A stretch of DNA of 64,000 nt from Eledone cirrhosa. Its lineage: Eukaryota. The position numbers were made by a program, and so were the translations under genes. The stretch spans positions 116,436,001 through 116,500,000 of the forward strand of contig OZ024744.1 of the NCBI GenBank assembly GCA_964016885.1, given 5' to 3'. The notes under the pieces are model-generated. The model was not told the DNA's origin and did not search any database. It saw only the letters and a program-made list of their open reading frames with translations. Shown piece by piece: positions 45,001 to 63,206 of the stretch; within the stretch, counting starts at the first letter, position 1; the number at the start of each line of letters is the position of its first letter.

Positions 45001-46220
45001 TTTTACTGGTGTCAGTCATTAGACTGTGGCCATACTGGGGTACTACCTAGATATAGTCTACCATATCAACCTCAGTTCGGTTTTACTGTTGTCCGGCATT
45101 AGACTGTGGCCATACTGGGGCACTAGCTTGATGTAATCTACCATATCAATCTCACTACAGTTTTACTGGTGTCAGTCATTAGACTGGGGCCATACTGTGG
45201 CACCACTTTGATATAGTCTACCATATCAACTTCAGTACTGTTTTACTGGTGTCAGTCATTAGACTGTGGCCATACTGGGGCACTACCTTGATACAGTCTA
45301 CCATATCAACCTCAGTACTGTTTTACATCTGTCAGTCACTAGACTGTGGCCATACTGGGGCACTACCTTGATATAGTCTACTATATCAACCTCAGTACTG
45401 TTTTACTGGTGTCAGTCATTAGACTGTGGCCATACTGCGGCACTACCTTGATATAGTCTACCATATCAACCTCAGTACTGTTTTACTGGTGTCAGTCATT
45501 AGACTGCGGCCATACTGGGGCACTACCTTGATATAGTCTACCATATCATCCTCAGTACAGTTTTACTGGTGTCAGTCATTAGAGTGTGGCCATACTGGGG
45601 CACCAGCTTGATATAGTCTACCATATCAACCTCACTACTGTTTACTGGTGTCAGTTATTAGACTGTGGGCATACTGAGGTACTACCTTGATATAGTCTAC
45701 CATATCAACCTCGGTTCAGTTTTACTGGTGTCATTCATTAGACTGTGGCCATACTGGGGCACTACCTTGATATAGTCTACCATATCAACCTCACTACTGT
45801 TTTACTGGTGTCAGTCATTGGACTGTGGCCATACTGGGGCACTACCTTGACATAGTCTACCATATCAACCTCAGTACTGTTTTACTGGTGTCAGTCATTA
45901 GACTGTGGCCATACTGGAGCACTACTTTGACATAGTCTACCATATCAACCTCAGTACTGTTTTACTGGTGTCAGTCATTAGAGTGTGGCCATACTGGAGC
46001 ACTACCTTGACATAGTCTACCATATCAACCTCAGTACTGCCTTACTGATTTCAGTCGTTAGACTGTGTCTATGCTGGGGCACTAAAGTGATTTAAAGCTT
46101 TCAGTAATGACACTGTCGCCATACTGGGGCACTACACTGTTTTACTGCTTTCACTCATTATACTGTGACCATACTGGGGCACTAGACTGTTTTACTGCTT
46201 TCAGCCATTAGACTGTGGCA
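1..46220. repeat. 80-bp satellite DNA array (~575 monomers), open at the left window edge
   Basis: Head-to-tail monomer GTTTTACTGGTGTCAGTCATTAGACTGTGGCCATACTGGGGCACTACCTTGATATAGTCTACCATATCAACCTCA(G/C)TACT in one orientation, usually with 0-4 substitutions per copy. Occasional 73-, 79- and 81-bp variants occur. Canonical to ~46040, degenerate 46041-46220. Confidence 0.99.
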
Positions 46221-46372
46221 CCTAATTTCCTTAACCCTTTAGCATTTAAACCGGCCGCATCTAGCTAGAATTCTCTCACCTCTTTTTGTTCAAACTGGCC
46301 ACTTATACTGATGTTAAGGTACTGTTCCTAAAATAAATAATATCAAAATAAATAATATCAAAATCTCATAGA

Positions 46373-46528
46373 AGGTTGGACTCCATGCTTTCTAGCATAG
46401 TTACATCCCTTTACAGTTTGAGTTCAAATCCCGCCATGGTTAACTTTGCCTTTCATCCTTACGGGGTCGATAAAATAAAGTACCAGTAATGCACTGGGTA
46501 ATTGCTGGCCTTGTGCCTAAAGTAGAAA
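46373..46528 (+). mobile_element. 5'-truncated tRNA-derived SINE fragment
   Basis: B-box-like GAGTTCAAATCC (46420-31) is followed by GCCTTTCATCCTTACGGGGTCGATAAAATAAAGTACCAG, which resembles the Deu/Nin-type SINE central domain (recognised from memory). CATAGA flanks it at 46367-72 and 46529-34 as a candidate TSD. Confidence 0.7.
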
Positions 46529-46540
46529 CATAGATTTGAT

Positions 46541-47374
46541 ATTATGTGAGATAATTATGTTAGGTAAAGCATTTACTGTGAAAATACAATAGTATATATA
46601 GAGTAATGTAAATGTTATGTGAGGTAATTATGTGAGGTAAAGTCTTTACTGTGAAAATACAATAGTATATATAGAGTAATGTAAATGTTATGTGAGATAT
46701 TATGTAAGGTAAAGCCTTTACTGTGAAAATACAATAGTATATATAGAGTAATGTAAATGTTATGTGAGATATTATGTGAGGTAAAGCCTTTACTGTGAAA
46801 ATACAATAGTATATATAGAGTAATGTAAATGTTATGTGAGATATTATGTAAGGTAAAGCCTTTACTGTGAAAATACAATAGTATATATAGAGTAATGTAA
46901 ATGTTATGTGAGATATTATGTGAGGTAAAGACTTTACTGTGAAAATACAATAGTATATATAGAGTAATGTAAATGTTATGTGAGCTATTATGTGAGGTAA
47001 AGTCTTTACTGTGAAAATACAATAGTATATATAGAGTAATGTAAATGTTATGTGAGGTAAAGCCTTTACTGTGACAATACAATAGTATATATAGAGTAAT
47101 GTAAATGTAATGTGAGATATTATGTGAGATAAAGCCTTTACTGGAAAATACAATAGTATATATAGAGTAATGTAAATCTTATGTGAGGTAATTATGTGAG
47201 GTAAAGACTTTACTGTGAAAATACAATAGTATATATAGAGTAATATAAATGTTATGTGAGGTAATTATGTGAGGTAAAGCTTTTACTGTGAAAATACAAT
47301 AGTATATATAGAGTAATGTAAATGTTATGTGAGGTAAAGCCTTTACTGTGACAATACAATAGTATATATAGAGT
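46541..47374. repeat. 72-bp AT-rich tandem array, left arm (~12 copies)
   Basis: Unit TATGTGAGATATTATGTGAGGTAAAGCCTTTACTGTGAAAATACAATAGTATATATAGAGTAATGTAAATGT, with 60- and 73-bp variants. It explains the 24-aa periodic ORFs in the track. Confidence 0.97.
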
Positions 47375-47380
47375 GGTTTC

Positions 47381-47386
47381 TTTATT
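47381..47386 (-). promoter_or_regulatory. Polyadenylation signal AATAAA at the retrotransposon 3' end
   Basis: TTTATT on + lies 6 nt from the junction with the 72-bp array. No poly(A) tail follows. Confidence 0.6.
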
Positions 47387-47611
47387 TGCCACTAGGGCAC
47401 AAAAGGTAGGGACAGATACAAGGGGGGAAGTTTACATATAATTAACGAGTACAAAAATATAACAATGAAATAACAACAACAAACGAAGTCCTCAATAGGG
47501 AGGGGGCATTAACATGGGTCGCACACACCCCGGAAAAAATGTGCAACCCTTCTCCTCAGGAGCACAAAGAGTAGGTGCTTCCCTCGTCTCCTCTTTTTCC
47601 TCTTCTTTCAC

Positions 47612-47893
47612 CTACAGGCTGATATAGAGAGAAGACCCATTCACTCTGGCCATTCTCCCTACTTTCACCCACCTTTCATAAAACTTGCTGGGGTAGAGCA
47701 CCTCTCTCTCCATTCTGATCCTTCTTTTAAAATGGTATTTGAAAAAGGGGACCAGTTGTTGGCCGGAGAGAAAGGTGTCTGACCTCAGCCCTTTCAGCCT
47801 CGTCCACCATACAACTTCTTTAGCCATGGCTACCACACAGAGAAAAACCGCCTCTCCTTCGTTTTTGAAAACGGGAGACGGTTTGATCGTGAC
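47612..47893 (-). pseudogene. Out-of-frame C-terminal continuation of ORF2
   Basis: The alternate frame reads VTIKPSPVFKNEGEAVFLCVVAMAKEVVWWTRLK...SL*, matching the AKxxIWxxR-type motif found after the zinc finger in Tx1/L1 ORF2. One added base at ~47894 (TCC AT- GTC) would join it to ORF2. Confidence 0.75.
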
Positions 47894-50800
47894 ATGGACT
47901 CGGTGGTCAACCGGATTGGTCCCACCCTCGACAGTAGTCGTTCCACATAGCCCCACAGGTCAGCAATGCCTGGGCAGTGTACGAATGCGTGCGCAACGGT
48001 TTCGTCATCATGCACGCATCTCGGACAGATCTTATTCAAAGGATCTCTACCCAGGCTCCCATGCCTGTGGAGCCTGTCTCGAACGGGTAGAGCCCCTCGG
48101 TAGCACTGCCAAGCCAGGGACTTTTGGAAGTTGTCCATCGGTCCAGGGCCAAACGTCCTACCGAACAGACTGGCCAGTTCATCTTCCTCCATGCCTAGAG
48201 CTTCTCCGAGAGCATCGTCGCACCTGCTGCGTACCAACCCTCTATAGAATGTCGAGGTGGAGTCTCCACTGATTGCCGGGTCCGCTTTCCAGAGGGCCGT
48301 GAGCGCCTGGGCACATTCAATGTGCCAGTCGCCCACTTTTCTCGGTCTTTGCTTGACCCAGGATTGCAGCTCGGTGAGCGAGACGAGTCTGGAAAAGGCT
48401 CGCCTCACAAACGGGGCCCACACCGGTTGACCGGTGAGGAATACCTGGAGGTGCCGTAGCCTTAATGCGTGTTTACGCATCTGTAGCCACGGCATCCCCA
48501 GCCCTCCTTTCGAAGGGTGTTGACAGCAGATGGATCTCCTCACCAAAGGGGTCCGCTTGTTCCAAAGAAATTGGAACAGCGCGCACTCCATTTTGGCGAG
48601 TCTTTTCACTGGGCAAGGCACGACGGTCAAGCGGTAGTAGATGACGGATGCTATATAAGTATTCGCCACCTCCGCTCGACCTTTCAGGGATAGTTTGCAC
48701 TGGGCCCACTTCTGGGTGAGTGCAAACACCCTGGCCGTTACCTCGTTCCAGTTTTTCTCCACCTGGAGGTCTGGTCCGAACCAGACCCCAAGCAGCTTCA
48801 CCGGGCCCTCCGTCCAGCGTCCGACGACGTCGTTGGAGGGCATCGGTTTGCCTCTCCATGTTCCGAGTTGCAAACCGACGGACTTGTCCCGGTTCAGCTT
48901 GGCTCCTGTAAACCTTTCATATTCCTCCAGTAAGGTGCCGATCTCACCGATTTGCGAGGTTTTCGACACCATTACTGTCACGTCATCGGCGTAGGCCGAC
49001 GCCGCTTTCTGCAATCCCGGTTCCAAAGGGATGCCCTGCAACCGCTCCAACTTCCGCAGTAGTGGCTCAAGAGCCAGCACATACAGTAGGGAGGAGAGAG
49101 GGCATCCCTGTCGGATGGATCGCATGATTTGGAACGGCTCCGAGAGGTGGCCGTTCACCTTGACCCTTGAGCAGACGTTGCTGCTGTGCATCGCAGCAAT
49201 CCAACCCCTGAAAACGGGTCCGAAGCCTGCCGCCGCGAGCACCGCATCCAGGTAACGATGGTCAACCCTATCGAAAGCTTTAGATTGATCCAAGTTGATC
49301 AGGGCCCCACCAAAGCCGGGTTCATTCCCTACCCTCTCTATGATGTATCGCATAAGGTGGAGATTGTCGTGAATGGACCTGGACGGGATTGCGCATGTCT
49401 GCGCTTCTCCCACCAGGTTTCCAACGACAAGCGCCAACCTCTTTGCTAACACCTTGGCCAAAATCTTTAACTCTGTATTTAGCAGAGTTATGGGCCTGAA
49501 GTTACTTATGTCATCCCCCTTGTTCTCATCCTTCCTCACCAGCGTAACTACGCCCTTGGTCACAGAACTGGGAATTCTCCCGTTCTGCTGCCAGTTGCAG
49601 TAGACCGCTTCGAGGATATCGGAGAACAAGTCCGGCATCGCTACATATAGCTCGTATGGTAGACCATCGAGACCCGGGGATTTGCGTTTGCCGCATTGGC
49701 TCAGCGCCGCCCCTATCTCAGCAGCTGAAATCGTCCTTTCGCAGGACTTCGCCTCCGCGTCCGAGAGGCGCGGCAGACCGTCGAGGTATGGATTGAAATC
49801 CATAGTCTCACCCGGCGCGCCGCCCCTCTCGAACAGTCGTGCAAAGTGCCGCTGAAAGGCCGCACACATCTGCCCAGGTTCAAGGATCACACGCCCATCC
49901 TGGTCCTTCAAAGACCGAATCGTGGACTTGTTCCCACTTTTTGCCTCTGTCACTCGGGCCCAGCTCACAGCTTTGGCTCCCTCATTACCCAGAGCACGTA
50001 TTTTACTCCTGACAACGCAGCCTTCATGCTTCACCTCAAAGAACTGGTCTAAGGCCATTCTTGATGCCAGCACGCCGGCTACATTGCCACTCCTAATCGC
50101 CTCTTCTACTCTATCTACTAATTCCCTTTCCGTCTTGTTCCTATCCCTTGCTAATTCCTGACTAAAACCTATCGATTCTATTCTAATTGCTCTCTTAAGA
50201 GAGCTCCACCACCTGTTGTTGACAATTGCCCCTGTCAAACTCTGCTTAACTAACGTGCTAATCCGTTTACTGTAAGCTTTGCTTCTCGGTAAGGACAAGT
50301 TCAGCTTCCAGTAACCGGGTCCCTGTCTATGGGTTCTATCAAGGTTGGCTATGCAGGTCACTAACTTGTGATCCGAATAGTCAACCATGAACATTTTTGG
50401 ACAGCTAAATGTGTCCCTATCGTTCTCTCTAACTAGGACCCTATCTAGGTACGACCTAGATGTTCCACTGCGATTGGTCCACGTCCATAGTGGTACAGTC
50501 GGAAAATCTAGTCGATATCTATCGGCCAGGTCAAATCGGCCGATTAACCTTTTGAGGCTTTTACACCCCCCTCTATTGGCACATGCCCCTACATAGTCCC
50601 AACGTGCATCCAGGATACCATTCCAGTCCCCCACTAAAAGCAAGGAGCGGGACGTTCCCAGAAAAGTTTCCAGACGTTGGAAGTATTCCGGCCGCGCTGC
50701 CCAAAAAGGGGCGTACACAGCTATTAGTCTAAGGGCTCCACTTTCACTACTGCCGACGTCTAAAACCACCAGTCGACCCTCCGGGTCCAGGTGCACCTTC

Positions 50801-51048
50801 TGTATGGCGAGGCCCAGGTGTTTTCGCAGCAGAACGACAACTCCACCCCCACCCTCCGGTTGACAGAGAGATGCGAAGATCTCAAAGTCGTCGAAGAGGG
50901 GCGCCAGTTGGTGCTCGCTGCTGATCCTGGACTCGCAAATAGCCATTACATCCATTCTATGCGACCTGAGATCGTTTAAAAGTTTGCCTTGTTTCCAAGA
51001 CAGTCCCAGGCCGCGTACATTTAGACACCCAACTCTTATATCAGCCAT
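47830..51048 (-). CDS. ORF2: APE endonuclease - reverse transcriptase - C-terminal zinc finger (Tx1-like), C-terminus frameshifted
   Basis: APE motifs CLNVRGL, ICESR, VYAP, VGDWN, YLDRVLV, SDHK and linker GYWKLN. RT motifs SPGLDG, NFRPITLLNTELKILAKVLAKRL, LDQSKAFDRVDH, IRQGCPLS, YADD. Zinc finger CPRC...ETVAHAFVHC. 1072 aa. Confidence 0.95.
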   Translation of the reverse strand: MADIRVGCLNVRGLGLSWKQGKLLNDLRSHRMDVMAICESRISSEHQLAPLFDDFEIFASLCQPEGGGGVVVLLRKHLGLAIQKVHLDPEGRLVVLDVGSSESGALRLIAVYAPFWAARPEYFQRLETFLGTSRSLLLVGDWNGILDARWDYVGACANRGGCKSLKRLIGRFDLADRYRLDFPTVPLWTWTNRSGTSRSYLDRVLVRENDRDTFSCPKMFMVDYSDHKLVTCIANLDRTHRQGPGYWKLNLSLPRSKAYSKRISTLVKQSLTGAIVNNRWWSSLKRAIRIESIGFSQELARDRNKTERELVDRVEEAIRSGNVAGVLASRMALDQFFEVKHEGCVVRSKIRALGNEGAKAVSWARVTEAKSGNKSTIRSLKDQDGRVILEPGQMCAAFQRHFARLFERGGAPGETMDFNPYLDGLPRLSDAEAKSCERTISAAEIGAALSQCGKRKSPGLDGLPYELYVAMPDLFSDILEAVYCNWQQNGRIPSSVTKGVVTLVRKDENKGDDISNFRPITLLNTELKILAKVLAKRLALVVGNLVGEAQTCAIPSRSIHDNLHLMRYIIERVGNEPGFGGALINLDQSKAFDRVDHRYLDAVLAAAGFGPVFRGWIAAMHSSNVCSRVKVNGHLSEPFQIMRSIRQGCPLSSLLYVLALEPLLRKLERLQGIPLEPGLQKAASAYADDVTVMVSKTSQIGEIGTLLEEYERFTGAKLNRDKSVGLQLGTWRGKPMPSNDVVGRWTEGPVKLLGVWFGPDLQVEKNWNEVTARVFALTQKWAQCKLSLKGRAEVANTYIASVIYYRLTVVPCPVKRLAKMECALFQFLWNKRTPLVRRSICCQHPSKGGLGMPWLQMRKHALRLRHLQVFLTGQPVWAPFVRRAFSRLVSLTELQSWVKQRPRKVGDWHIECAQALTALWKADPAISGDSTSTFYRGLVRSRCDDALGEALGMEEDELASLFGRTFGPGPMDNFQKSLAWQCYRGALPVRDRLHRHGSLGRDPLNKICPRCVHDDETVAHAFVHCPGIADLWGYVERLLSRVGPIRLTTESMSRSNRLPFSKTKERRFFSVW

Positions 51049-51069
51049 GTTGGTTAAAAGAGGAAGGAC

Positions 51070-52440
51070 CTACCTGTTCGGCTCCTGAGGAGCAGGTTGC
51101 ACAATATCCATGGGCGTATTGGAGGGGCTGTTTGGTGGGGTGTTGTTCTGTGGTGGAGTGGGGGTGTTTGGTGAGGTGTGGGTGGGGAAACGTTTCAAGA
51201 GGACACGGTTATAGGGTCGAGTACATGTTTTCCCCACGTCCTCAGGAAAGTTCTCTCTTAGTTTTGCATAGGTGTCCATTGGGAGTCTTATCATTTTTAA
51301 ATGCGGTTTGTTGGCCGCGCTTGCAAAGAATTGCCCTTCAGTTTCCACCAAAGGGTCTTTGTGTATTGTTTTTACTAGTTCTTTGTTATTTGTGTTAATG
51401 TATGTATACTGTTTTATTTGTGTTGTGTTTGTTTGTTGTTCTTGTGTGTGCTTACGTTTTGTTGTATGTGTTATGTTTTGGGGTGGGGCGGATTTTGTTT
51501 GTTCTGTTTGTTTTGTTTTTGTTGGTGGTTGTGTGTTTGTTTCGTTTATGTTCGAGTGGTGCTTTCTTTTTTTCCTTTTTACAGGTTGGAAGGGTTCCCC
51601 CTCTTCGTCACTAGGTGCCGTTTCCGCTGGGTCCTCGTCCGTGCTGTCGGGTAGTGGTGTATTTTGGGGTTTTGTTGTATTTGTGTGTGTTTTGGGAGTT
51701 GTTTTGGGTGGGGCCGTGTCTTGTGTTATTTTTCCGTGTTGTTTTTGTTGTTGTTGTGGTGGTGGTGGTGGTGGCGGTGGTGGTGTGTGGGGTGTAGGCA
51801 AAAGAGCCTTTTTTTTTGTCAATTGAGGACAAGCAGCCCTTAGATGACCCCTGCTTGAACAGTAGTAACATATGGGCCTCCTACCCTCGGCTGAAATATA
51901 TATAAATGTTTCTCCATCGAGGGACACCCTCTGTGGTATTCTAGCTATTCGTTCTGGTCTCATTTGGACCAGAACCTCCACGCTCAAACCGCCGAAAACG
52001 TCTGTGGTGACTTCTCCTACTGAAAGGATTCCGTCCTCGTCTTCTAAAAATCCTGTTAGTACCCAGGAAATGCATGCATTTGGCCGGATTCCGGAAACCC
52101 TTATCTTCTGCGTTCTTTTCCCTAAATATGTGGGGAAAAATGTATGTAGCTTTGAAACAATTGGCGCCACAGAGTATTTCCTGGCCGTCAATTGATCCTT
52201 CATTAGGACCGTTATATTCCCATAGAGTGGCCCTTTTTGTATGAACGATATATCACTCCACACATTTTTTAGGACCAGCTCAATCTCTTTTTGGGATAAT
52301 TGAGTTGGTTTCCTTGTTATGTTGGAAATTGTTCTGAAAGATATCGTTCTTAGCGTCGTGTCTCTTTTGATTTCTTGTGGGGAGGTGATTGTGAAGTCTC
52401 CTCCTTCTTCGAAAGTTACATACTGTTTCGCTTCCTTCAT
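51070..52440 (-). CDS. ORF1: gag-like nucleic-acid-binding protein with zinc knuckle
   Basis: Contains CYYCSSRGHLRAAC (CX2CX4HX4C), a Pro/Gln/Thr-rich region and basic KRKKRK, directly upstream of ORF2. The frame is open upstream of the called ATG back to a TAG at 52575-73 and includes SFAQAVRK. Confidence 0.9.
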   Translation of the reverse strand: MKEAKQYVTFEEGGDFTITSPQEIKRDTTLRTISFRTISNITRKPTQLSQKEIELVLKNVWSDISFIQKGPLYGNITVLMKDQLTARKYSVAPIVSKLHTFFPTYLGKRTQKIRVSGIRPNACISWVLTGFLEDEDGILSVGEVTTDVFGGLSVEVLVQMRPERIARIPQRVSLDGETFIYISAEGRRPICYYCSSRGHLRAACPQLTKKKALLPTPHTPPPPPPPPPQQQQKQHGKITQDTAPPKTTPKTHTNTTKPQNTPLPDSTDEDPAETAPSDEEGEPFQPVKRKKRKHHSNINETNTQPPTKTKQTEQTKSAPPQNITHTTKRKHTQEQQTNTTQIKQYTYINTNNKELVKTIHKDPLVETEGQFFASAANKPHLKMIRLPMDTYAKLRENFPEDVGKTCTRPYNRVLLKRFPTHTSPNTPTPPQNNTPPNSPSNTPMDIVQPAPQEPNR

Positions 52441-52448
52441 CTTTTCTC

Positions 52449-52790
52449 TCAGAGTTGTAATGTCCAGTTGCTTGCAGGTTTGTGTTTTCCGGACCGCCTG
52501 TGCAAAGGAGGCACCAGTAGTGGGTTCGCTTTGTTTGGTGTTATCGTTATTTTTCCTTGGTTGGTGTTGTGACTATTGCTGTTATTGTCGTTGTTGTTTT
52601 TGTCTGCGTTTATGTGACTTTCTGGGTTTTCACCCATTTTTACAAATTTTTCTTTTAATTCCGTGTTCCATATTTCTTTTGCAGAAGTGAGGAGGGAAGA
52701 CTTAGAGCCTTGTGCTTCTAGCTTCTCTGTATCACCTTTCTTAGGGGGCGTGGCTTTCACGTTAGGATGAGATGTGAAAATTCCGTCCAT
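52449..52790 (-). pseudogene. Probable frameshifted N-terminus of ORF1 (MDGIFTSHPN...)
   Basis: The ATG at 52790 opens a frame overlapping the ATG-less upstream extension of the ORF1 frame. A single -1 shift between ~52572 and ~52520 would fuse the two. Confidence 0.55.
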
Positions 52791-53001
52791 TTCTATTAGT
52801 TTGCCGTAATAAGTTTTTAACTGGAAAATTCGCCCCAAAAAGGGGCGAAAATAAATAAACTCAAAGTTTGACGACCAAGGCAAGGGGTTAACGTATATTA
52901 CAGTATAAAAAAAATTAATCAAAACTCACTTTTGAGTAAGTAAATCCGACTCGGTAGCCGAGCTTGTTCACACACGTCAACACACGTCTCTCGTATACGA
53001 G

Positions 53002-53581
53002 ATGTTATGTGAGATATTATGTGAAGTAAAGCCTTTACTGTGAAAATACAATAGTATATATAGAGTAATGTAAATGTTATGTGAGGTAATTATGTGAGGT
53101 AAAGCCTTTACTGTGAAAATACAATAGTATATATAGAGTAATGTAAATGTTATGTGAGATATTATGTGAGGTAAAGCCTTTACTGTGAAAATACAATAGT
53201 ATATATAGAGTAATGTAAATGTTATGTGAGATATTATGTGAGGTAAAGCTTTTACTGTGAAAATACAATAGTATATATAGAGTAATGTAAATGTTATGTG
53301 AGGTATTATGTGAGATAAAGACTTTACTGTGAAAATACAATAGTATATATAGAGTAATGTAAATGTTATGTGAGATATTATGTGAGATAAAGACTTTACT
53401 GTGAAAATACAATAGTATATATAGAGTAATGTAAATGTTATGTGAGATATTATGTGAGATAAAGACTTTACTGTGAAAATACAATAGTATATATAGAGTA
53501 ATGTAAATGTTATGTGAGATATTATGTGAGGTAAAGCCTTTACTGTGAAAATACAATAGTATATATAGAGTAATGTAAATG
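53002..53581. repeat. 72-bp AT-rich tandem array, right arm (~8 copies), running into the right TIR
   Basis: Same unit and orientation as 46541-47374. The last copy ends AGAGTAATGTAAATG and continues directly into CTAAAGGGTTAA. Confidence 0.97.
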
Positions 53582-53593
53582 CTAAAGGGTTAA

Positions 53594-53945
53594 GGTAGAT
53601 GGAAACCAGGGTTGGAGCTAGGACACAGCCCTGTTTCAGCCCTCCAGATTAGAAAAGTGCGTTCTCCCATTTTATCATGAAGCGTGACAATAAGGTCAAC
53701 AAAGTGATTTGGGAAGCCAAAGTGAAGCAGCACAGACCACACTGCCGGCTCAGTAACCGAAGTCTTTGTGAAAGTCCCAGAAGTTGAATACAAATGGCTG
53801 CTGCCCTCACACACCTTCTCCTCGCATGTCATATCAAGAGTTACCCAGGATTGTTGAAACCACATCGAGATTCTGGGAAAATTTAAGATTTTACTGGAAA
53901 TCTTACCGGCAATGGTGAGCAGGGAGAAACCGTGATAATTGTTGT
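53594..53945 (-). pseudogene. Decayed RTE-clade LINE reverse transcriptase fragment
   Basis: Translates as NNYHGFSLLTIAGKI... (compare NYRGISLLSIAGKI), then VWSVLLHFGFPNHFVDLIVTLHDKM, then after a frameshift GLKQGCVLAPTLVSIYL, which stops at the TTAA. Confidence 0.85.
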
Positions 53946-54895
53946 TCACTGACCGGTGTCCGAAGATGGTGATGATGTTGTTGTAAACTGACCGGTGTCC
54001 GAAGATGGTGATGATGTTGTTGTAAACTGACCGCCGGTGTCCGAAGATGGTGATGATGTTGTTGTAAACTGACCGCCGGTGTCCGAAGATGGCGATGATG
54101 TTGTTGTACACTGACCGCTGTCCGAAGATGGCGATGATGTTGTTGTACACTGACCGCCGGTGTCCGAAGATGGCGATGATGTTGTTGTACACTGACCGCT
54201 GTCCGAAGATGGCGATGATGTTGTTGTAAACTGACCGCCGGTGTCCGAAGATTATGATGATGATGTTGTAAACTGACCGCTGTCCAAAGATGGCGATGAT
54301 GTTGTTGTACATTGACCGCTGTCCGAAGATGGTGATGATGATGTTGTACACTGACCGGTGTCCGAAGATGGTGATGATGATGTTGTACACTGACCGCTGT
54401 CCGAAGATGGCGATGATGTTGTTGTAAACTGACCGCTGTCCGAAGATGGTGATGATGTTGTTGTACACTGACCGCTGTCCGAAGACGGCGATGATGTTGT
54501 TGTAAACTGACCGCTGTCCAAAGATGGCGATGATGTTGTTGTAAACTGACCGCTGTCCGAAGATGGTGATGATGTTGTTGTACATTGACCGCTGTCCAAA
54601 GATGGCGATGATGTTGTTGTAAACTGACCGCTGTCCGAAGATGGTGATGATGTTGTTGTACATTGACCGCTGTCCAAAGATGGCGATGATGTTGTTGTAA
54701 ACTGACCGCTGTCCGAAGATGGTGATGATGTTGTTGTACATTGACCGCTGTCCAAAGATGGCGATGATGTTGTACACTGACCGCTGTCCGAAGATGGCGA
54801 TGATGTTGTTGTAAACTGACCGCTGTCCGAAGATGGTGATGATGTTGTTGTACATTGACCGCTGTCCAAAGATGGCGATGATGTTGTATACTGAC
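53939..54895. repeat. 36-bp minisatellite (~26 copies, with 33- and 39-bp variants)
   Basis: Unit ACTGACCGCTGTCCGAAGATGG(T/C)GATGATGTTGTTGTA(A/C)-like, embedded in the RTE remnant. Confidence 0.97.
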
Positions 54896-55177
54896 AGGAG
54901 GAAGAGTCATCCATAGTTTGACAGGTTGCAGTTGAGAGTTTCTCAAGAGATCATCTGGGGTTTGAGGCTGAAAAGTTCATATTGTTATTGCAGCTCACCC
55001 CAATCTAGGTTTAGCTGGCCGCCTATAATCAGTGCTTGGCAAGGCTCTGGTGATACATCTTTCATAAATTGGGTCCTTGTCAACAATCCAGAATATGACA
55101 GTTTTTTTAACCTTGGATGTTGCCAGATTGTTTTATGGTGAGTTGGAAAACAGAAGAGGAAGTTTGTAACGCCCAGG
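54896..55177 (-). pseudogene. Decayed RTE-clade APE endonuclease / linker fragment
   Basis: My translation, with frameshifts: LGVTNFLFCFPTHHKTIWQHPRLKK/CHILDC (compare ITNT.F...KTTW.HPRSK.WH.LDY), then KDV/ITRALPSTDYR (compare TDHR), then DDLLRNSQLQPVKLWMTLPP. Confidence 0.75.
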
Positions 55178-58100
55178 CCGAGGATGACCTGCCAGAGATG
55201 GTGATTATCAGTGAGATGACCTACTACAGATGGTGATTGTCACTGTGATGACCTGTCAGAGATGGTGATTGTCAGTGAGATGACCTGCCAGAGATGGTGA
55301 TTGTCACCAAGGATGACCTGCCATTGATGGTGATTGTCACCAAGATAACCTGCCAGAGATGGTGATTGTCACTGAGATGACCTGTCAGAGATGGTTATTG
55401 TCACCAAGGATGACCCGCCAGAGATGGTGATTGTCAATGAGATGACCTGTCAGAGATGGTGATTGTCACCAAGATAACCTGCCAGAGATGGTGATTGTCA
55501 CCAAGGATGACCTGCCAGAGATGGTGATTGTCACTGTCATGACCTGCCAGAATGGTGATTGTCACCAAGGTTGACCTGCCAGAGATGGTGATTGTCACTG
55601 TGATGACCTGCCAGAGATGGTGATTGTCATTGTGATGACCTGCAAAAGATGGCGATTGTCACCAAGGATGACCTGCCAGAGATGGTGATTGTCACTGTGA
55701 TGACCTGCCAGAGATGGTGATTGTCACCAAGGATGGCCTGCCAGAGATGGTGATTGTCACCAAGGATGGCCTGCCAGAGATGGTGATTGTCACCAAGGAT
55801 GACCTGCCAGAGATGGTTATTGTCACTGTGATGACCTGCCAGAGATGGTGATTGTCAGTGAGATGACCTGCCAGAGATGGTGATTGTCATTGTGATGACC
55901 TGCAAGAGATGGCGATTGTCACTGTTGATGACCTGCCTGAGATGGTGATTGTCACCAAGGATGACCTGCCAGAGATGGTGATTGTCACTGAGATGACCTG
56001 TCAGAGATGGTGATTGTCACTGTCATGACCTGCCAGAATGGTGATTGTCACCAAGGATGACCTGCCAGAGATGGTGATTGTCACTGAGATGACCTGCCAG
56101 AGATGGTGATTGTCACTGTGATGACCTGCCAGAGATGGTGATTGTCACCAAGGATGACCTGCCAGAGATGGTGATTGTCACTGTGATGACCAGCCAGAGA
56201 TGGTGATTGTCACTGAGATGACCTGTCAGAGATGGTGATTGTCACCAAGGATGACCTGCCAGAGATGGTGATTGTCAGTGAGATGACTTGTCAGAGATGG
56301 TGATTGTCACTGAGATGACCTGCCAGAGATGGTGATTGTCACTGTCATGACCTGCCAGCGATGGTGATTGTCACCAAGGATGAACTGCCAGAGATGGTGA
56401 TTGTCACTGAGATGACCTGCCAGAGATAGTGATTGTCACCAAGGATGACCTGCCAGAGATGGTGATTGTCACTGTGATGACCTGCCAGAGATGGTGATTG
56501 TCACTGTGATGACCTGCCAGAGATGGTGATTGTCACCAAGGATGACCTGTCAGAGAAGGTGATTGTCACCAAGGATGACCTGCCAGAGATGGTGATTGTC
56601 ACTGTGATGACCTGCCAGAGATGGTGATTGTCACTGTGATGACCTGTCAGAGATGGTGATTGTCACTGTGATGACCTGTCAGAGATGGTGATTGTCACCA
56701 ACGATGACCTGCCAGAGATGGTGATTGTCAGTAAGATGACCTGCTAGAGATGGTGATTTTCAGTGAGATGACCTGTCAGAGATGGTGATTGTCACTGAGA
56801 TGACCTGTCAGAGATGGTGATTGTCACTGAGATGACCTGCCAGGGATGGTGATTGTCACCAAGGATGACCTGCCAGAGATGGTGATTGTCAGTAAGATGA
56901 CCTGCTAGAGATGGTGATTTTCAGTGAGATGACCTGCTAGAGATGGTGATTGTCACTGAGATGACCTGTCAGAGATGGTTATTGTCACTGAGATGACCTG
57001 CCAGAGATGGTGATTGTCACCAACGATGACCTGCCAGAGATGGTGATTGTCACTGTCATGACCTGCTAGAGATAGTGATTGTCACTGTGATGACCTGCCA
57101 GAATGGTGATTGTCACTGTGATGACCTGCCAGAATGGTGATTGTCACCAAGGATGACCTGCCAGAGATGGTTATTGTCACTGAGATGACCTGCCAGAGAT
57201 GGTGATTGTCAGTGAGATGACCTGCCAGAGATGGTGATTGGCAGTGAGATGACCAGCCAGAGCTAGTGATTGTCACTGTGATGACCTGCCAGAGATGGTG
57301 ATTGTCAGTGAGATGACCTGCCAGAGATGGTGATTGTCAGAGATGACCTGTCAGAGATGGTTATTGTCACCAAGGATGGCCTGCCAGAGATAGTGATTGT
57401 CACTGTGATGACCTGTCAGAGATGGTGATTGTCAGTGAGATGACCTGCCAGAGATGGTGATTGTCATTGTGATGACCTGCAAGAGATGGCGATTGTCACT
57501 GAGATGACCTGCCAGAGATGGTGATTGTCACCAAGGATGACCTACCAGAGATGGTTATTGTCACTGTGATGACCTGCCAGATATGGTGATTGTCAGTGAG
57601 ATGACCTGCCAGAGATGGTGATTGTCACCAAGGATGACCTGCCAGAGATTGTGATTGTCACTGTGATGACCTGCCAGAGATGGTGATTGTCAGTGAGATG
57701 ACCTGCCAGAGATGGTGATTGTCATTGTGATGACCTGCAAGAGATGGCGATTGTCACTGTTGATGACCTGCCTGAGATGGTGATTGTCACCAAGGATGAC
57801 CTGCCATAGTTGATGATTGTCACCACGATAACTTGCCAGAGATGGTGATTTTCACTGTCATGACCTGTCAGAGATGGTGATTGTCACCAAGGATGACCTG
57901 CCAGAGATGGTGATTGTCACTGTGATGACCTGCCAGAGATGGTGATTGTCACCAACGATGACCTGCCAGAGATGGTAATTGTCACTGAGATGACCTGCCA
58001 GAGATGGTGATTGTCACTGAGATGACCTGCCAGAGATGGTGATTGTCACTGTGATGACCTGCCAGAATGGTGATTGTCACCAAGGATGACCTGCCAGAGA

Positions 58101-59793
58101 TGGTTATTGTCACTGAGATGACCTGCCAGAGATGGTGATTGTCACCAAGGATGACCTGCCAGAGATGGTGATTGTCACCAAGGATGACCTGCCAGAGATG
58201 GTGATTGTCACTGTGATGACCTGCCAGAGATGGTGATTGTCACTGTGATGACCTGCCAGAGATGGTGATTGTCACCAAGGATGACCTGCCAGAGATGGTG
58301 ATTGTCACTGTCATGACCTGCCAGAGATGGTGATTGTCACCAAGGATGACCTGCCAGAGATGGTGATTGTCACTGTGATGACCTGCCAGAGATGGTGATT
58401 GTCACTGAGATGACCTGCCAGAGATGGTGATTGTCACCAAGGGTGACCTGCCAGAGATGGTGATTGTCACCAAGGATGACCTGCCAGAGATGGTGATTGT
58501 CACTCTCATGACCTGCCAGCGATGGTGATTGTCACCAAGGATGACCTGCCAGAGATGGTGATTGTCACTGTGATGACCTGCCAGAGATGGTGATTGTCAC
58601 TGTGATGACCTGCCAGAGATGGTGATTGTCACCAAGGATGACCTGCCAGAGATGGTGATTGTCACTGTCATGACCTGCCAGAGATGGTGATTGTCACTGT
58701 GATGACCTGTCAGAGATGGTGATTGTCACCAACGATGACCTGCCAGAGATGGTGATTGTCAGTAAGATGACCTGCTAGAGATGGTGATTTTCAGTGAGAT
58801 GACCTGTCAGAGAAGGTGATTGTCACCAAGGATGACCTGCCAGAGATAGTGATTGTCACTGTGATGACCTGCCAGAGATGGTGATTGTCACCAAGGATGA
58901 CCTGCCAGAGATGGTGATTGTCACCAAGGATGACCTGCCAGAGATGGTTATTGTCAGAGATGACCTGTCAGAGATGGTTATTGTCAGTGAGATGACCTGC
59001 CAGAGATGGTGATTGTCAGTGAGATGACCTGCCAGAGATGGTGATTGTCAGTGAGATGACCTGCCAGAGATGGTGATTGTCAGTGAGATGACTTGTCAGA
59101 GATGGTGATTGTCACCAAGGATGACCTGCCAGAGATGGTGATTGTCACTGTCATGACCTGCCAGAGATGGTGATTGTCACTGAGATGACCTGCCAGAGAT
59201 AGTGATTGTCACTGTGATGACCTGCCAGAGATGGTGATTGTCACTGAGATGACCTGCCAGAGATAGTGATTGTCACTGTGATGACCTGCCAGAGATGGTG
59301 ATTGTCAACAAGGATGACCTGCCAGAGATGGTGATTGTCACTGAGATGACCTGCCAGAGATGGTGATTGTCACCAAGGATGACCTGCCAGAGATGGTGAT
59401 TGTCACTGTGATGACCTGCCATAGATGGTGATTGTCACCAAGGATGACCTGCCAGAGATGGTGATTGTCACTGTGATGACCTGCCAGAGATGGTGATTGA
59501 CACTGTCATGACCTGCCAGAGATGGTGATTGTCACTGTCATGACCTGCCAGAGATGGTGATTGTCACCAAGGATGACCTGCCATAGATGGTGATTGTCAC
59601 CAAGGATGACCTGCCAGAGATGGTGATTGTCACTGAGATGACCTGCCATAGATGGTGATTGTCACCAAGGATGACCTGCCAGAGATGGTGATTGTCACCA
59701 AGGATGACCTGCCAGAGATGGTGATTGTCACTGAGATGACCTGCCAGAGATGGTGATTGTCACTGTCATGACCTGTCAGAGATGGTGATTGTC
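55178..59793. repeat. 32/33-bp minisatellite (~140 copies)
   Basis: Constant GATGACCTGCCAGAGATGGTGATTGTCA followed by a variable 4-5 nt segment (CTGT, CTGA, GTGA, CCAAG, CCAAC, GTAA). Confidence 0.98.
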
Positions 59794-62279: not shown

Positions 62280-62977
62280 GTGGAATTTTGGCGATGTTTG
62301 CAAGAAGAAAATAATTCTGTTCTGAGATTAATAGAGTTTTGACAGTTAATTATATAAAAAATTTCTTCGATACACAATTTACAGAATCCTGATAAAGCCG
62401 TATTTCAGTATGCATGTGCTTTTGAAATTTTTCTCCAAGATATTGAATATTCTATATTATTGTCTTTTAAATCCCATATAAGATGTGAAAGTGAAGTAGA
62501 AGATTTTTTATCAGATCTCCTGAGAGTATGATTATGGTTATTCCAGCGTTCTTTAAATTTTGTTGAAGTGGCACCAACATAGTTAAATATTTTGTCGCTA
62601 GTTTTAACTGTGCATTTATAAACTATGTTTTTGTCTAAACAATTATTTTGTAAAGGGCAGTTTGATTTGATTCTACAGTTACAATTACTAGAGTTATTGT
62701 TGTTCAGAACGGTACCATTATTCTGAGTATTGTTGTTAGAAATATTATTATTGCTATTTTGTTTAGTTTGGTTAGGGTTTAAATTTAAGTTTCTATTATT
62801 AATTCTATTTATATTTTGTGCGATGTTCATAGTAGTAGAGTAGGATAGTTTTATAGTGTGTCTGTTAAAAATAGAGTGGTATCTGTGGGCTTTAGGAAAA
62901 CATTTGTCTAGTGCTTTAAAGAATAGCTTTGCTAAAGGTGTTTTAATGTTTAATGAGAATGGGGGAGAGTACCAGAT
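62280..62977 (-). pseudogene. Penelope-like element 3' fragment: linker + GIY-YIG endonuclease (Neptune-like), one premature stop
   Basis: Reads IWYSPPFSLNIKT...DKCFPKAHRYHSIFNRHTIKLSYS...CNCRIKSNCPLQNNC...NIVYKC...YVGAT...FKERWNNH...TSLSHLIWDLK. After the TGA at 62407-05 it continues in frame as GFCKLCIEE...NLRTELFSSCKHR. Confidence 0.88.
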
Positions 62978-63206
62978 AAATGAACACTGGCGAGACCTTC
63001 AAGATAGAAAAGAATCATCAGTACTCCACCAACATGGTAAAATAGAACACAAGGGTAAATTAGAGAACATAGAAATAAAAATAGAATCTACACACAGAAA
63101 AGACGCAATGTTTAGACAAATCACAGAGGCAATAAACATAAATGAACTCCAACCAAAATTAAATAGAAAACATGAATGGAATAGCAACATCACAACTTAC
63201 AATTAA
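62973..63206 (+). pseudogene. C-terminal half of a second, different Penelope-like GIY-YIG endonuclease
   Basis: INEHWRDLQDRKESSVLHQHGKIEH...IKIESTHRKDAMFRQITEAININELQPKLNRKHEW fits the EH...S.L..H...R...EA..I....P.LN pattern. Confidence 0.7.

Follow-up and report, generated by a model that had tools for sequence, protein, structure and literature searches.

The 64,000-nucleotide stretch of Eledone cirrhosa DNA analysed here (the window) carries a LINE lying within the tandem repeat of a TTAA-flanked TIR element. The original prediction had described this layout as TTAA and TIR, a 72-bp array, a 5.6-kb LINE, more array, and TIR and TTAA, and every part was found where it had been placed:

46231..46234, no strand: left TTAA target duplication; its outer letters differ between copies
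46235..46541, plus strand: left TIR (46235-46248, CCCTTTAGCATTTA) and left arm of a MITE classed as piggyBac-type
46373..46528, no strand: nested 156-bp dispersed repeat in the left arm, flanked by duplicated CATAGA (46367-46372 and 46529-46534)
46542..47374, plus strand: 72-bp array of 12 units on the LINE 3' side, ending ...ATATAGAGT at the putative first-strand nick
47375..53001, minus strand: Tx1-group non-LTR retrotransposon of 5,627 bp, without poly(A), ending AATAAAGAAACC
47612..51048, minus strand: ORF2 (APE endonuclease, RT, zf-RVT), open to 47833 in the window copy
51070..52790, minus strand: ORF1 with a CCHC zinc knuckle
53002..53031, minus strand: candidate RNA-borne 5' leader, target-repeat bases 1 to ~30, suggested by variant loss and a weak fold prediction
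53002..53581, plus strand: 72-bp array of 8 units on the LINE 5' side
53576..53589, minus strand: right TIR, overlapping the last 72-bp unit and mirroring the left TIR
53590..53593, no strand: right TTAA target duplication

The window TIRs form a perfect 20-nt inverted repeat once 2 flanking bases are included, and in the repeat register the 5'-side array begins 7 bases (AATGTAA) past the LINE 3' junction. The left arm is colinear with single-unit MITEs; the nested 156-bp repeat, which we take to be SINE-like, has 178 matches in the 101 loci examined and is missing from other MITE arms. Relative to young copies, the window LINE has one-base frameshifts near 47894 in ORF2 and near 52549 in ORF1, and ORF2 in the young copies runs to 1,145-1,152 open codons. 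The count of copies with open ORFs (22/74) is an upper bound, since the lenient thresholds also pass the frameshifted window copy.

TIR-bounded copies that lack the LINE occur both as ~228-bp single-unit copies and as arrays, so the 72-bp array is not unique to the window, and because the ~228-bp copies share the left arm and the right end of the window element, the two TIRs belong to one element and not to separate insertions. The subterminal 72 bp of the MITE is the unit that is expanded into arrays. Of 33 complete copies without the LINE, 24 are bounded by TTAA on both sides, with variable outer letters, and the MITE TIRs start with CCC; the sample of LINE-free arrays is small (7 complete arrays and those among 30 right ends). 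The MITE left end (TTAA, TIR and 5 nt) matches one terminus of the piggyBac transposase element L240 at 23/23 positions, and 2.57-kb PF13843 elements in the same genome have termini that match the left end at 23/23 or 22/23 positions and the right end at 21/22. As judged from sequence, the host MITE is a non-autonomous piggyBac-type element and an old one. A likeness of the 80-bp satellite to an octopus SINE was not confirmed.

The LINE belongs to a young family of about 300 copies in the E. cirrhosa genome (pairwise divergence 0-3.4%). Genome-wide, 255/258 exact 3' ends adjoin the same base of the 72-bp repeat, preceded by ATAGAGT, and 269 of the 302 5' ends adjoin the same 22 repeat nucleotides, while flank-free LINE queries placed 29/30 and 30/30 loci within the repeat. 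With reversed patterns as controls, each pattern search gave 0 matches, so that the arrangement of LINE and repeat is not due to chance. Tabulated on both sides, the flanks of the collected copies are not unrelated, and the proposal of an invertebrate LINE with a sequence-specific landing site in a repeat borne by a DNA transposon is borne out by a base and an orientation that are fixed in nearly all of the genomic copies. The copy L006/L077, considered as a clean off-target insertion, did not qualify as such: the 5' flank is a 17-unit array, the 3' flank agrees with the target over no more than its last ~13 bases, and the copy is probably rearranged.

The window LINE has the traits of the Tx1 group, namely two ORFs, a zinc knuckle in ORF1, APE, RT and a C-terminal zinc-binding domain in ORF2, sequence-specific insertion into a multicopy target and absence of poly(A). 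ORF2 shares 30% identity over 832 aa with Tx1L (P14381) and scores 291 bits to it; in a different program the scores are 185 bits for human L1 and 85 for R2. In the RT tree, whose root is arbitrary and which includes no true L1, the octopod clade is sister to a clade of P14381 and the fish proteins BAC82609 and BAC82605 (UFBoot 100); Tx1L clusters with a turtle protein and fish elements, and the window RT is neither nested in nor sister to Tx1L itself. The window RT nests instead among families that target (TATC)n, within the separate octopod clade, which upholds the suggestion that this case is independent of Xenopus Tx1L. These sister families, with 82-87% nucleotide identity, are still present in the same genome, and their 3' ends adjoin TATC/TA repeats in 25/25 cases and the 72-mer in none. 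On the evidence of this tree and these targets, 72-mer targeting, independent of Tx1L, is probably a recent switch from (TATC)n. The endonuclease hairpin loop differs little between the family (NRSGTSRS) and its TATC-targeting sisters (NRSGSSRS) and so hardly explains the switch, which counts against the reading favoured below. When diverged relatives were sought by protein search, the family's own copies saturated the results, and an ESM Atlas search returned only RT clusters without names.

Two types of junction are found. About 89/100 copies (~90%) retain the 5' end, and copies in which it is intact have no TSD and have lost 7 target bases; 10 of the first 100 3' ends belong to 5'-truncated copies, and 8/10 of these have duplications of 2-18 nt. 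A 65-bp TSD, also considered, was found at 0/49 informative loci and is rejected. In the truncated copies L183, L208 and L209 the adjoining next unit is non-canonical or absent, which indicates nicking without the need for a canonical leader.

The repeat unit beside the LINE 5' end has lost its local variants over about 30 bases. At unit positions 1-30, the 5'-adjacent unit retains 0/10 of the local variants (from 8 loci, partly linked), and control units retain 9/10, 8/10 and 7/9 of the same variants; within the 5'-adjacent unit, positions 31-48 retain 15/26. In agreement with this, the first 22 nt are exact in 79/86 junction units (the parsed first unit, with L212 and L213 excluded) vs 44/76 next units, in a set of 94 5' ends left after those sharing an identical 800-bp sequence had been dropped as duplicates, with the possible loss of some distinct loci. 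This variant loss points to a target leader carried on the RNA, as proposed for Drosophila R1A. The candidate leader is predicted to pair with the first ~35 nt of the LINE (z -4 for 231 nt); in a focused control 23/1000 shuffled leaders fold as well, a modest result, and other repeat windows fold equally well or better. An Rfam search of 46100-53700, HDV-like ribozymes included, gave no match up to E 1, a search that diverged ribozymes can escape. Contigs of runs X2, X3 and X5, possibly from the source sample, cover the 5' part of the LINE, one X3 and one X5 contig spanning the 5' junction, and cannot show transcript starts; run X1 gave short spurious pieces only.

The uniform 5' junction might also arise by TPRT targeting without any RNA leader, the second strand being cut 7 nt upstream and the protein picking canonical units. 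Although truncated, L106 shows the junction type of full-length copies, as a real second-strand cut at -7 would produce, and this counts against the leader; the R1A model has a cut at -9 (PMC2718515); and LINE-bearing arrays lie ~3.5% from one unit sequence and single-unit MITEs 12% from it, as target selection would lead one to expect. Nevertheless, the junction units of L069, L192, L207, L218 and L219 lack a position 1-30 variant that all 6 neighbours carry, and those of L069, L103 and L218 retain local variants further on, being chimeric and therefore not obtainable by the selection of a whole canonical unit; this explanation is unlikely. If the LINE copies spread chiefly as DNA, through unequal exchange or ectopic gene conversion involving separate 72-bp arrays, this would account for the high share of copies with a 5' end and for tandem runs, in which LINEs may be merely 65 bp apart (L118-L120). 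L216 and L320 have a common 5' flank of about 590 bp in different arms, and L093 and L113, sister LINEs in different arms, have units and repeat variants in common on both sides, a pattern that looks more like conversion and was counted against the leader. Conversion, however, predicts no asymmetry between the 3'-adjacent unit, which retains 8/10 local variants, and the 5'-adjacent one with its 0/10, and it is at odds with the TSDs on truncated copies and with the 0.9-1.6% difference between neighbouring copies within one array, so that as the main route it appears quite improbable.

Movement of MITE and LINE together as a composite piggyBac cargo element, which had been raised as a possibility for this locus, fared worst. 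The window copy has perfect TIRs with TTAA at both ends, and the genome holds piggyBac elements whose 561-aa transposase frames are open and whose termini are nearly those of the MITE. Among 36 composites of the about 300 copies, however, the MITE arms are 17.4% apart vs 1.28% for the LINEs, arm and LINE distances are not correlated (Mantel rho 0.03, p 0.42), and 0/630 arm pairs are under 5% apart (minimum 5.1%), so that no near-identical pair exists; LINEs only 0.09-0.25% apart lie in arms 9-26% apart, that is, near-identical LINEs sit in different host MITEs. Array length and insertion position also vary from locus to locus, and composites identical between their TTAAs but with different outer flanks were not found among these 36. 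Cargo movement as the main mode is thus highly improbable, although rare moves of this kind could escape a sample of 36.

We consider it probable that a young Tx1-group LINE inserts at a fixed site in the repeat of an old piggyBac-type MITE by TPRT, likely with an RNA that begins in the repeat, about 25-30 nt upstream of the element. The APE domain would nick past ...ATATAGAGT, and the nicked end would prime reverse transcription; a second-strand cut a few to ~18 nt downstream would account for the short duplications seen in truncated copies. Once a full cDNA has been made, the end of it that derives from the repeat would anneal to the next repeat unit, by which the 7 bases would be removed, the first ~30 bases of the unit replaced by the element's version and a uniform 5' junction formed; such annealing would favour full-length copies. 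The family may be a recent offshoot of relatives that target (TATC)n, a sequence similar to the MITE site, and the MITE would serve as a dispersed safe haven and not as a vehicle.

It is possible, if doubtful, that the LINE also farms its own target, in that transcripts would sometimes carry whole units and insertions import them into old MITEs; once such a LINE was lost from between its flanking units, and with slippage added, the 72-bp arrays that remained would be homogenised and offer better targets. Farming would account for the fact that array units of different loci lie so close to one sequence, vs about 10% from their majority for MITE arms and single units, and that the two 72-mers of L212 and L213, which lie in a 43-bp satellite, occur there at the LINE 5' ends alone. 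The LINE-free arrays L161 and L162 are local amplifications of a diverged unit, which counts against farming. Target selection could yield the same enrichment, and the 72-mers of L212 and L213 could predate the insertions.

Three points go beyond the original prediction: descent from (TATC)n-targeting elements, the existence of two junction types and the putatively overwritten 5' leader. Xenopus Tx1L sits in the internal tandem repeats of Tx1D and has a fixed TSD, whereas full-length octopod copies have a 7-bp deletion and an apparently overwritten leader. The octopod LINE also stands on a separate branch, with (TATC)n-targeting families as its closest relatives. The two arrangements are alike in host class: Tx1L is a Tx1-group APE-RT LINE, site-specific in a non-autonomous piggyBac transposon (PMC4494074, PMC1950540), Tx1D in the Tx1C composite being assigned to this class in PMC4494074. 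A cephalopod has converged on the Tx1L/Tx1D arrangement, and TE-in-TE targeting is caught at its origin; since microsatellite-targeting sisters survive in the same genome, the APE determinants of the switch are testable by domain swaps. Kibi and Koshi are microsatellite-specific Tx1 elements for (TC)n and (TTC)n (PMC4494074); the octopod sister families resemble them in this, but with (TATC)n and in another lineage, and the 72-mer family has moved from microsatellite to MITE.

Preference for non-autonomous DNA transposons is described for the crocodilian Tx1-Mar (Mariner-N4_AMi) and Tx1-9_AMi (Harbinger), for which hitchhiking was tested and rejected, and one SINEU-2B 5' extension resembles the target transposon (PMC4494074). 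Those families are old (85-87% to consensus) and show a regional preference (PMC4494074), whereas the octopod family is young, base-exact, invertebrate and directed to a tandem repeat; here too, in such a composite, hitchhiking and independent insertion could be told apart. A parallel to the 5' junction is melanogaster-type R1A, in which full-length copies have a precise 9-bp target deletion and truncated copies have TSDs, and whose transcript has been proposed to include 6-27 nt of upstream target (PMC2718515), as the octopod LINE combines a precise 7-bp deletion in full-length copies with TSDs in most truncated ones. For RNA-templated gene insertion, interest attaches to an APE LINE that is base-exact and keeps about 90% of its 5' ends intact. 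R1A, unlike the octopod LINE, belongs to the R1 clade and targets 28S rDNA, whereas the octopod target is a dispersed TE repeat, diverged enough that leader transfer can be read from local variants and that the genome keeps a record of the junction bases contributed by the element, evidence on the leader-annealing model that is hard to get from identical rDNA targets.

In the window, the Tx1-group LINE lies within the expanded 72-bp repeat of a TTAA-flanked, piggyBac-type MITE, in the following layout:

from 46231: left TTAA of the MITE, then a 14-bp TIR
MITE left arm, holding a nested 156-bp repeat
left 72-bp array: 12 units, between the left arm and the LINE
47375-53001, minus strand: the LINE
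right 72-bp array: 8 units, then the TIR
ending at 53593: right TTAA of the MITE

ORF1 of this copy has a CCHC knuckle and ORF2 the domains APE, RT and zf-RVT; each ORF carries a one-base frameshift relative to young copies. Among named proteins, the RT comes closest to one from Argonauta hians (67%), which makes an octopod the likely host. An 80-bp satellite fills positions 1-46084, at least 46 kb (577 copies, 90% matches), and degenerates to 50-bp units immediately ahead of the MITE; no convincing dispersed relative of it was found among the retrieved loci. On the other side, a 39-bp array (53939-54887) splits the sequence at 53594-55180, whose RT motifs we take to be RTE-like, with no support from Pfam, and a 32-bp array occupies 55183-59793. 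An open frame of 197 codons (62405-62998, minus strand), with no Pfam match, presumably resembles the C-terminal region of a Penelope-type element.

The assembly surveyed for LINE and MITE copies comprises 3.0 Gb, in which the window occupies G000:C28:116436001-116500000. When the flanks retrieved by flank-free queries were tabulated, they proved to be the MITE repeat, entered at an identical base and orientation by 29/30 LINE 3' ends and 30/30 5' ends, the window itself being one row in each set. In whole-genome counts, 255 of the 258 exact 3' ends are preceded by ATAGAGT, and 269 of the 302 exact 5' ends continue into the same 22 repeat bases; the repeat was also present at the 5' junction in all 20 extra loci, picked because they were exceptions at the 5' end or had no exact 3' end. 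The targeting is thus almost certainly real and base-exact, and the original prediction that the LINE uses a DNA-transposon-borne repeat as its landing site holds, with about 1% of the repeat junctions holding a LINE. In slightly older copies (L314-L333), the 3' junction AGAGT is followed by AA or GA, versus the usual GG, indicating that the last two LINE bases differ between subfamilies that all use one unchanging site. The sole copy without a 72-mer on its 3' side adjoins a short palindromic element within a TA/GA microsatellite (L077:1880-2070).

The basic form of the host MITE is about 228 bp with one unit (26 of 33 complete LINE-free copies), the unit being its subterminal 72 bp and overlapping the right TIR. 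The exact 29-nt pattern of the right end occurs 13,251 times in the genome, and exact unit-to-unit junctions 33,583 times. Whether a copy has a single unit, an array or a LINE, its arms diverge from the column majority by about 10%, and the MITE is therefore old. A family of 2.57-kb piggyBac transposase elements (L222-L230, L232, L233, L235, L237; termini near-identical, frames up to 561 aa) has two differing ends that match both MITE ends, and open 561-aa frames in several members; it is a candidate for an active partner of the MITE.

The further suggestion that the LINE moves as cargo of the MITE was not supported, since the 74 full-length LINEs differ pairwise by a mean of 1.24% (range 0-3.4%), whereas the left arms of the 36 LINE-bearing copies in which they could be parsed are 17.4% apart (minimum 5.1%). 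Arms are 9-26% apart even around LINE pairs differing by only 0.09-0.25%, and arm distance does not track LINE distance (Mantel rho 0.03, p 0.42), which points to young LINEs entering old MITE copies one by one; independent insertion is very probable, and occasional transposase-driven moves of the composite may occur as rare events. LINEs also form runs of up to six consecutive copies, in places with no more than 65 bp of repeat between them (G000:C10:40.72-40.75 Mb, C10:41.38-41.43 Mb and C1:4.22-4.26 Mb, on contigs of the same assembly), and copies on C1 and C2 concentrate close to contig ends. Units in LINE-bearing arrays deviate by about 3.5% from one unit sequence (positions 26-55), and those of single-unit MITEs by 12% from that sequence and 9.5% from their own majority. 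LINE-free arrays of near-standard units (L151, L159, L168, L170) and of diverged, locally amplified units (L161, L162, L166) both exist, so that arrays can form without import; the LINE might, more speculatively, also spread repeat units.

Among the first 100 LINE 3' ends in genome order, 89 have the 5' end, 10 are 5'-truncated and 1 is interrupted. Duplications of 2-18 nt, lengths that include microhomology and, for L208, a judgement by eye (3 nt), accompany 8/10 truncated copies; L204 has a 42-nt duplication, L106 a junction of full-length type, and L183 a single-unit MITE as host. In full-length copies the repeat register resumes 7 bases further on; a 65-bp TSD was rejected for them, adjacent units being identical in 0/49 informative loci. 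The unit adjoining the 5' end was examined for local variants, defined as those that at least 60% of the neighbouring units to either side have in common: at positions 1-30 it retained 0/10 (8 loci), against 9/10, 8/10 and 7/9 in three control units, and at positions 31-48 this 5'-adjoining unit retained 15/26. Several chimeric junction units are standard to about 25-30 and then local. The simplest reading of these losses and chimeras, and a probable one, is an RNA leader: the LINE RNA would carry about 25-30 nt of repeat, and the cDNA end would anneal to the next unit. A fold prediction pairs the leader with the first ~35 nt of the LINE, but comes out weak in the control (23/1000 shuffles equally good).

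Carry-over of repeat longer than the leader is suggested. Two 72-mers follow each LINE of L212 and L213, which are 0.43% apart, in a 43-bp satellite otherwise devoid of 72-mers; this satellite, at a contig start (G000:C20:1-17568), is made from the MITE right end including the TIR. L216 and L320 (G000:C1, ~10.98-11.03 Mb), with arms 74% identical, have in common a 5' flank of about 590 bp, made up of one unit and ~530 bp of non-repeat sequence; in L320 this is followed by 150 bp from the 5' end of a LINE and then by further units. Either 5' transduction involving a template switch or conversion is a possible cause. The two 5' units and one 3' unit variant common to L093 and L113 fit gene conversion equally well.

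Sister families, 82-87% identical and reached via a diverged copy in L077, have a recognisable 3' end in 25/30 loci; all 25 adjoin TATC or TA repeats, and none a 72-mer. Copies ending within 1.9 kb make up 12/25, versus 9/100 in the MITE-targeting family, in samples selected by different criteria. The window RT falls within the sister families (support 95/86), in a tree whose rows L308 and L313 are presumed to have the TATC/TA flanks. Adding Tx1L (P14381) along with two fish pol-like proteins, which we take to be Kibi/Koshi/Keno/Dewa-type deposits, places the octopod clade as sister to theirs (UFBoot 100) in a tree lacking a true L1 outgroup. On the LINE strand the MITE site reads ACTCTATATATACT, similar to the microsatellite site ATCTATATATCT, which makes it likely that the target changed recently from microsatellite to MITE.

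Among the matches listed in full-text searches, whose scope left out Repbase, Dfam and most subscription journals, none reported a TE-specific Tx1 element from a cephalopod, and none a target leader for a Tx1-group element. For Octopus vulgaris, 13 recently active L1-Tx1 families are described, with targets not among the details given in the available part (PMC13282606); its supplements could include the LINE family of the window. That Tx1 elements can target TEs is already known: the portion available of PMC4494074 describes Tx1 in the non-autonomous piggyBac Tx1D, Tx1-Mar in Mariner-N4_AMi, and Harbinger elements as hosts of Tx1-9_AMi; known systems are treated further, in the sections available, in PMC6719617, PMC1950540 and PMC8869645. 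In melanogaster-type R1A, according to the accessible text, full-length copies show a 9-bp deletion and truncated ones TSDs, and 6-27 nt of upstream target are proposed in the transcript, with leader annealing as suggested here (PMC2718515).
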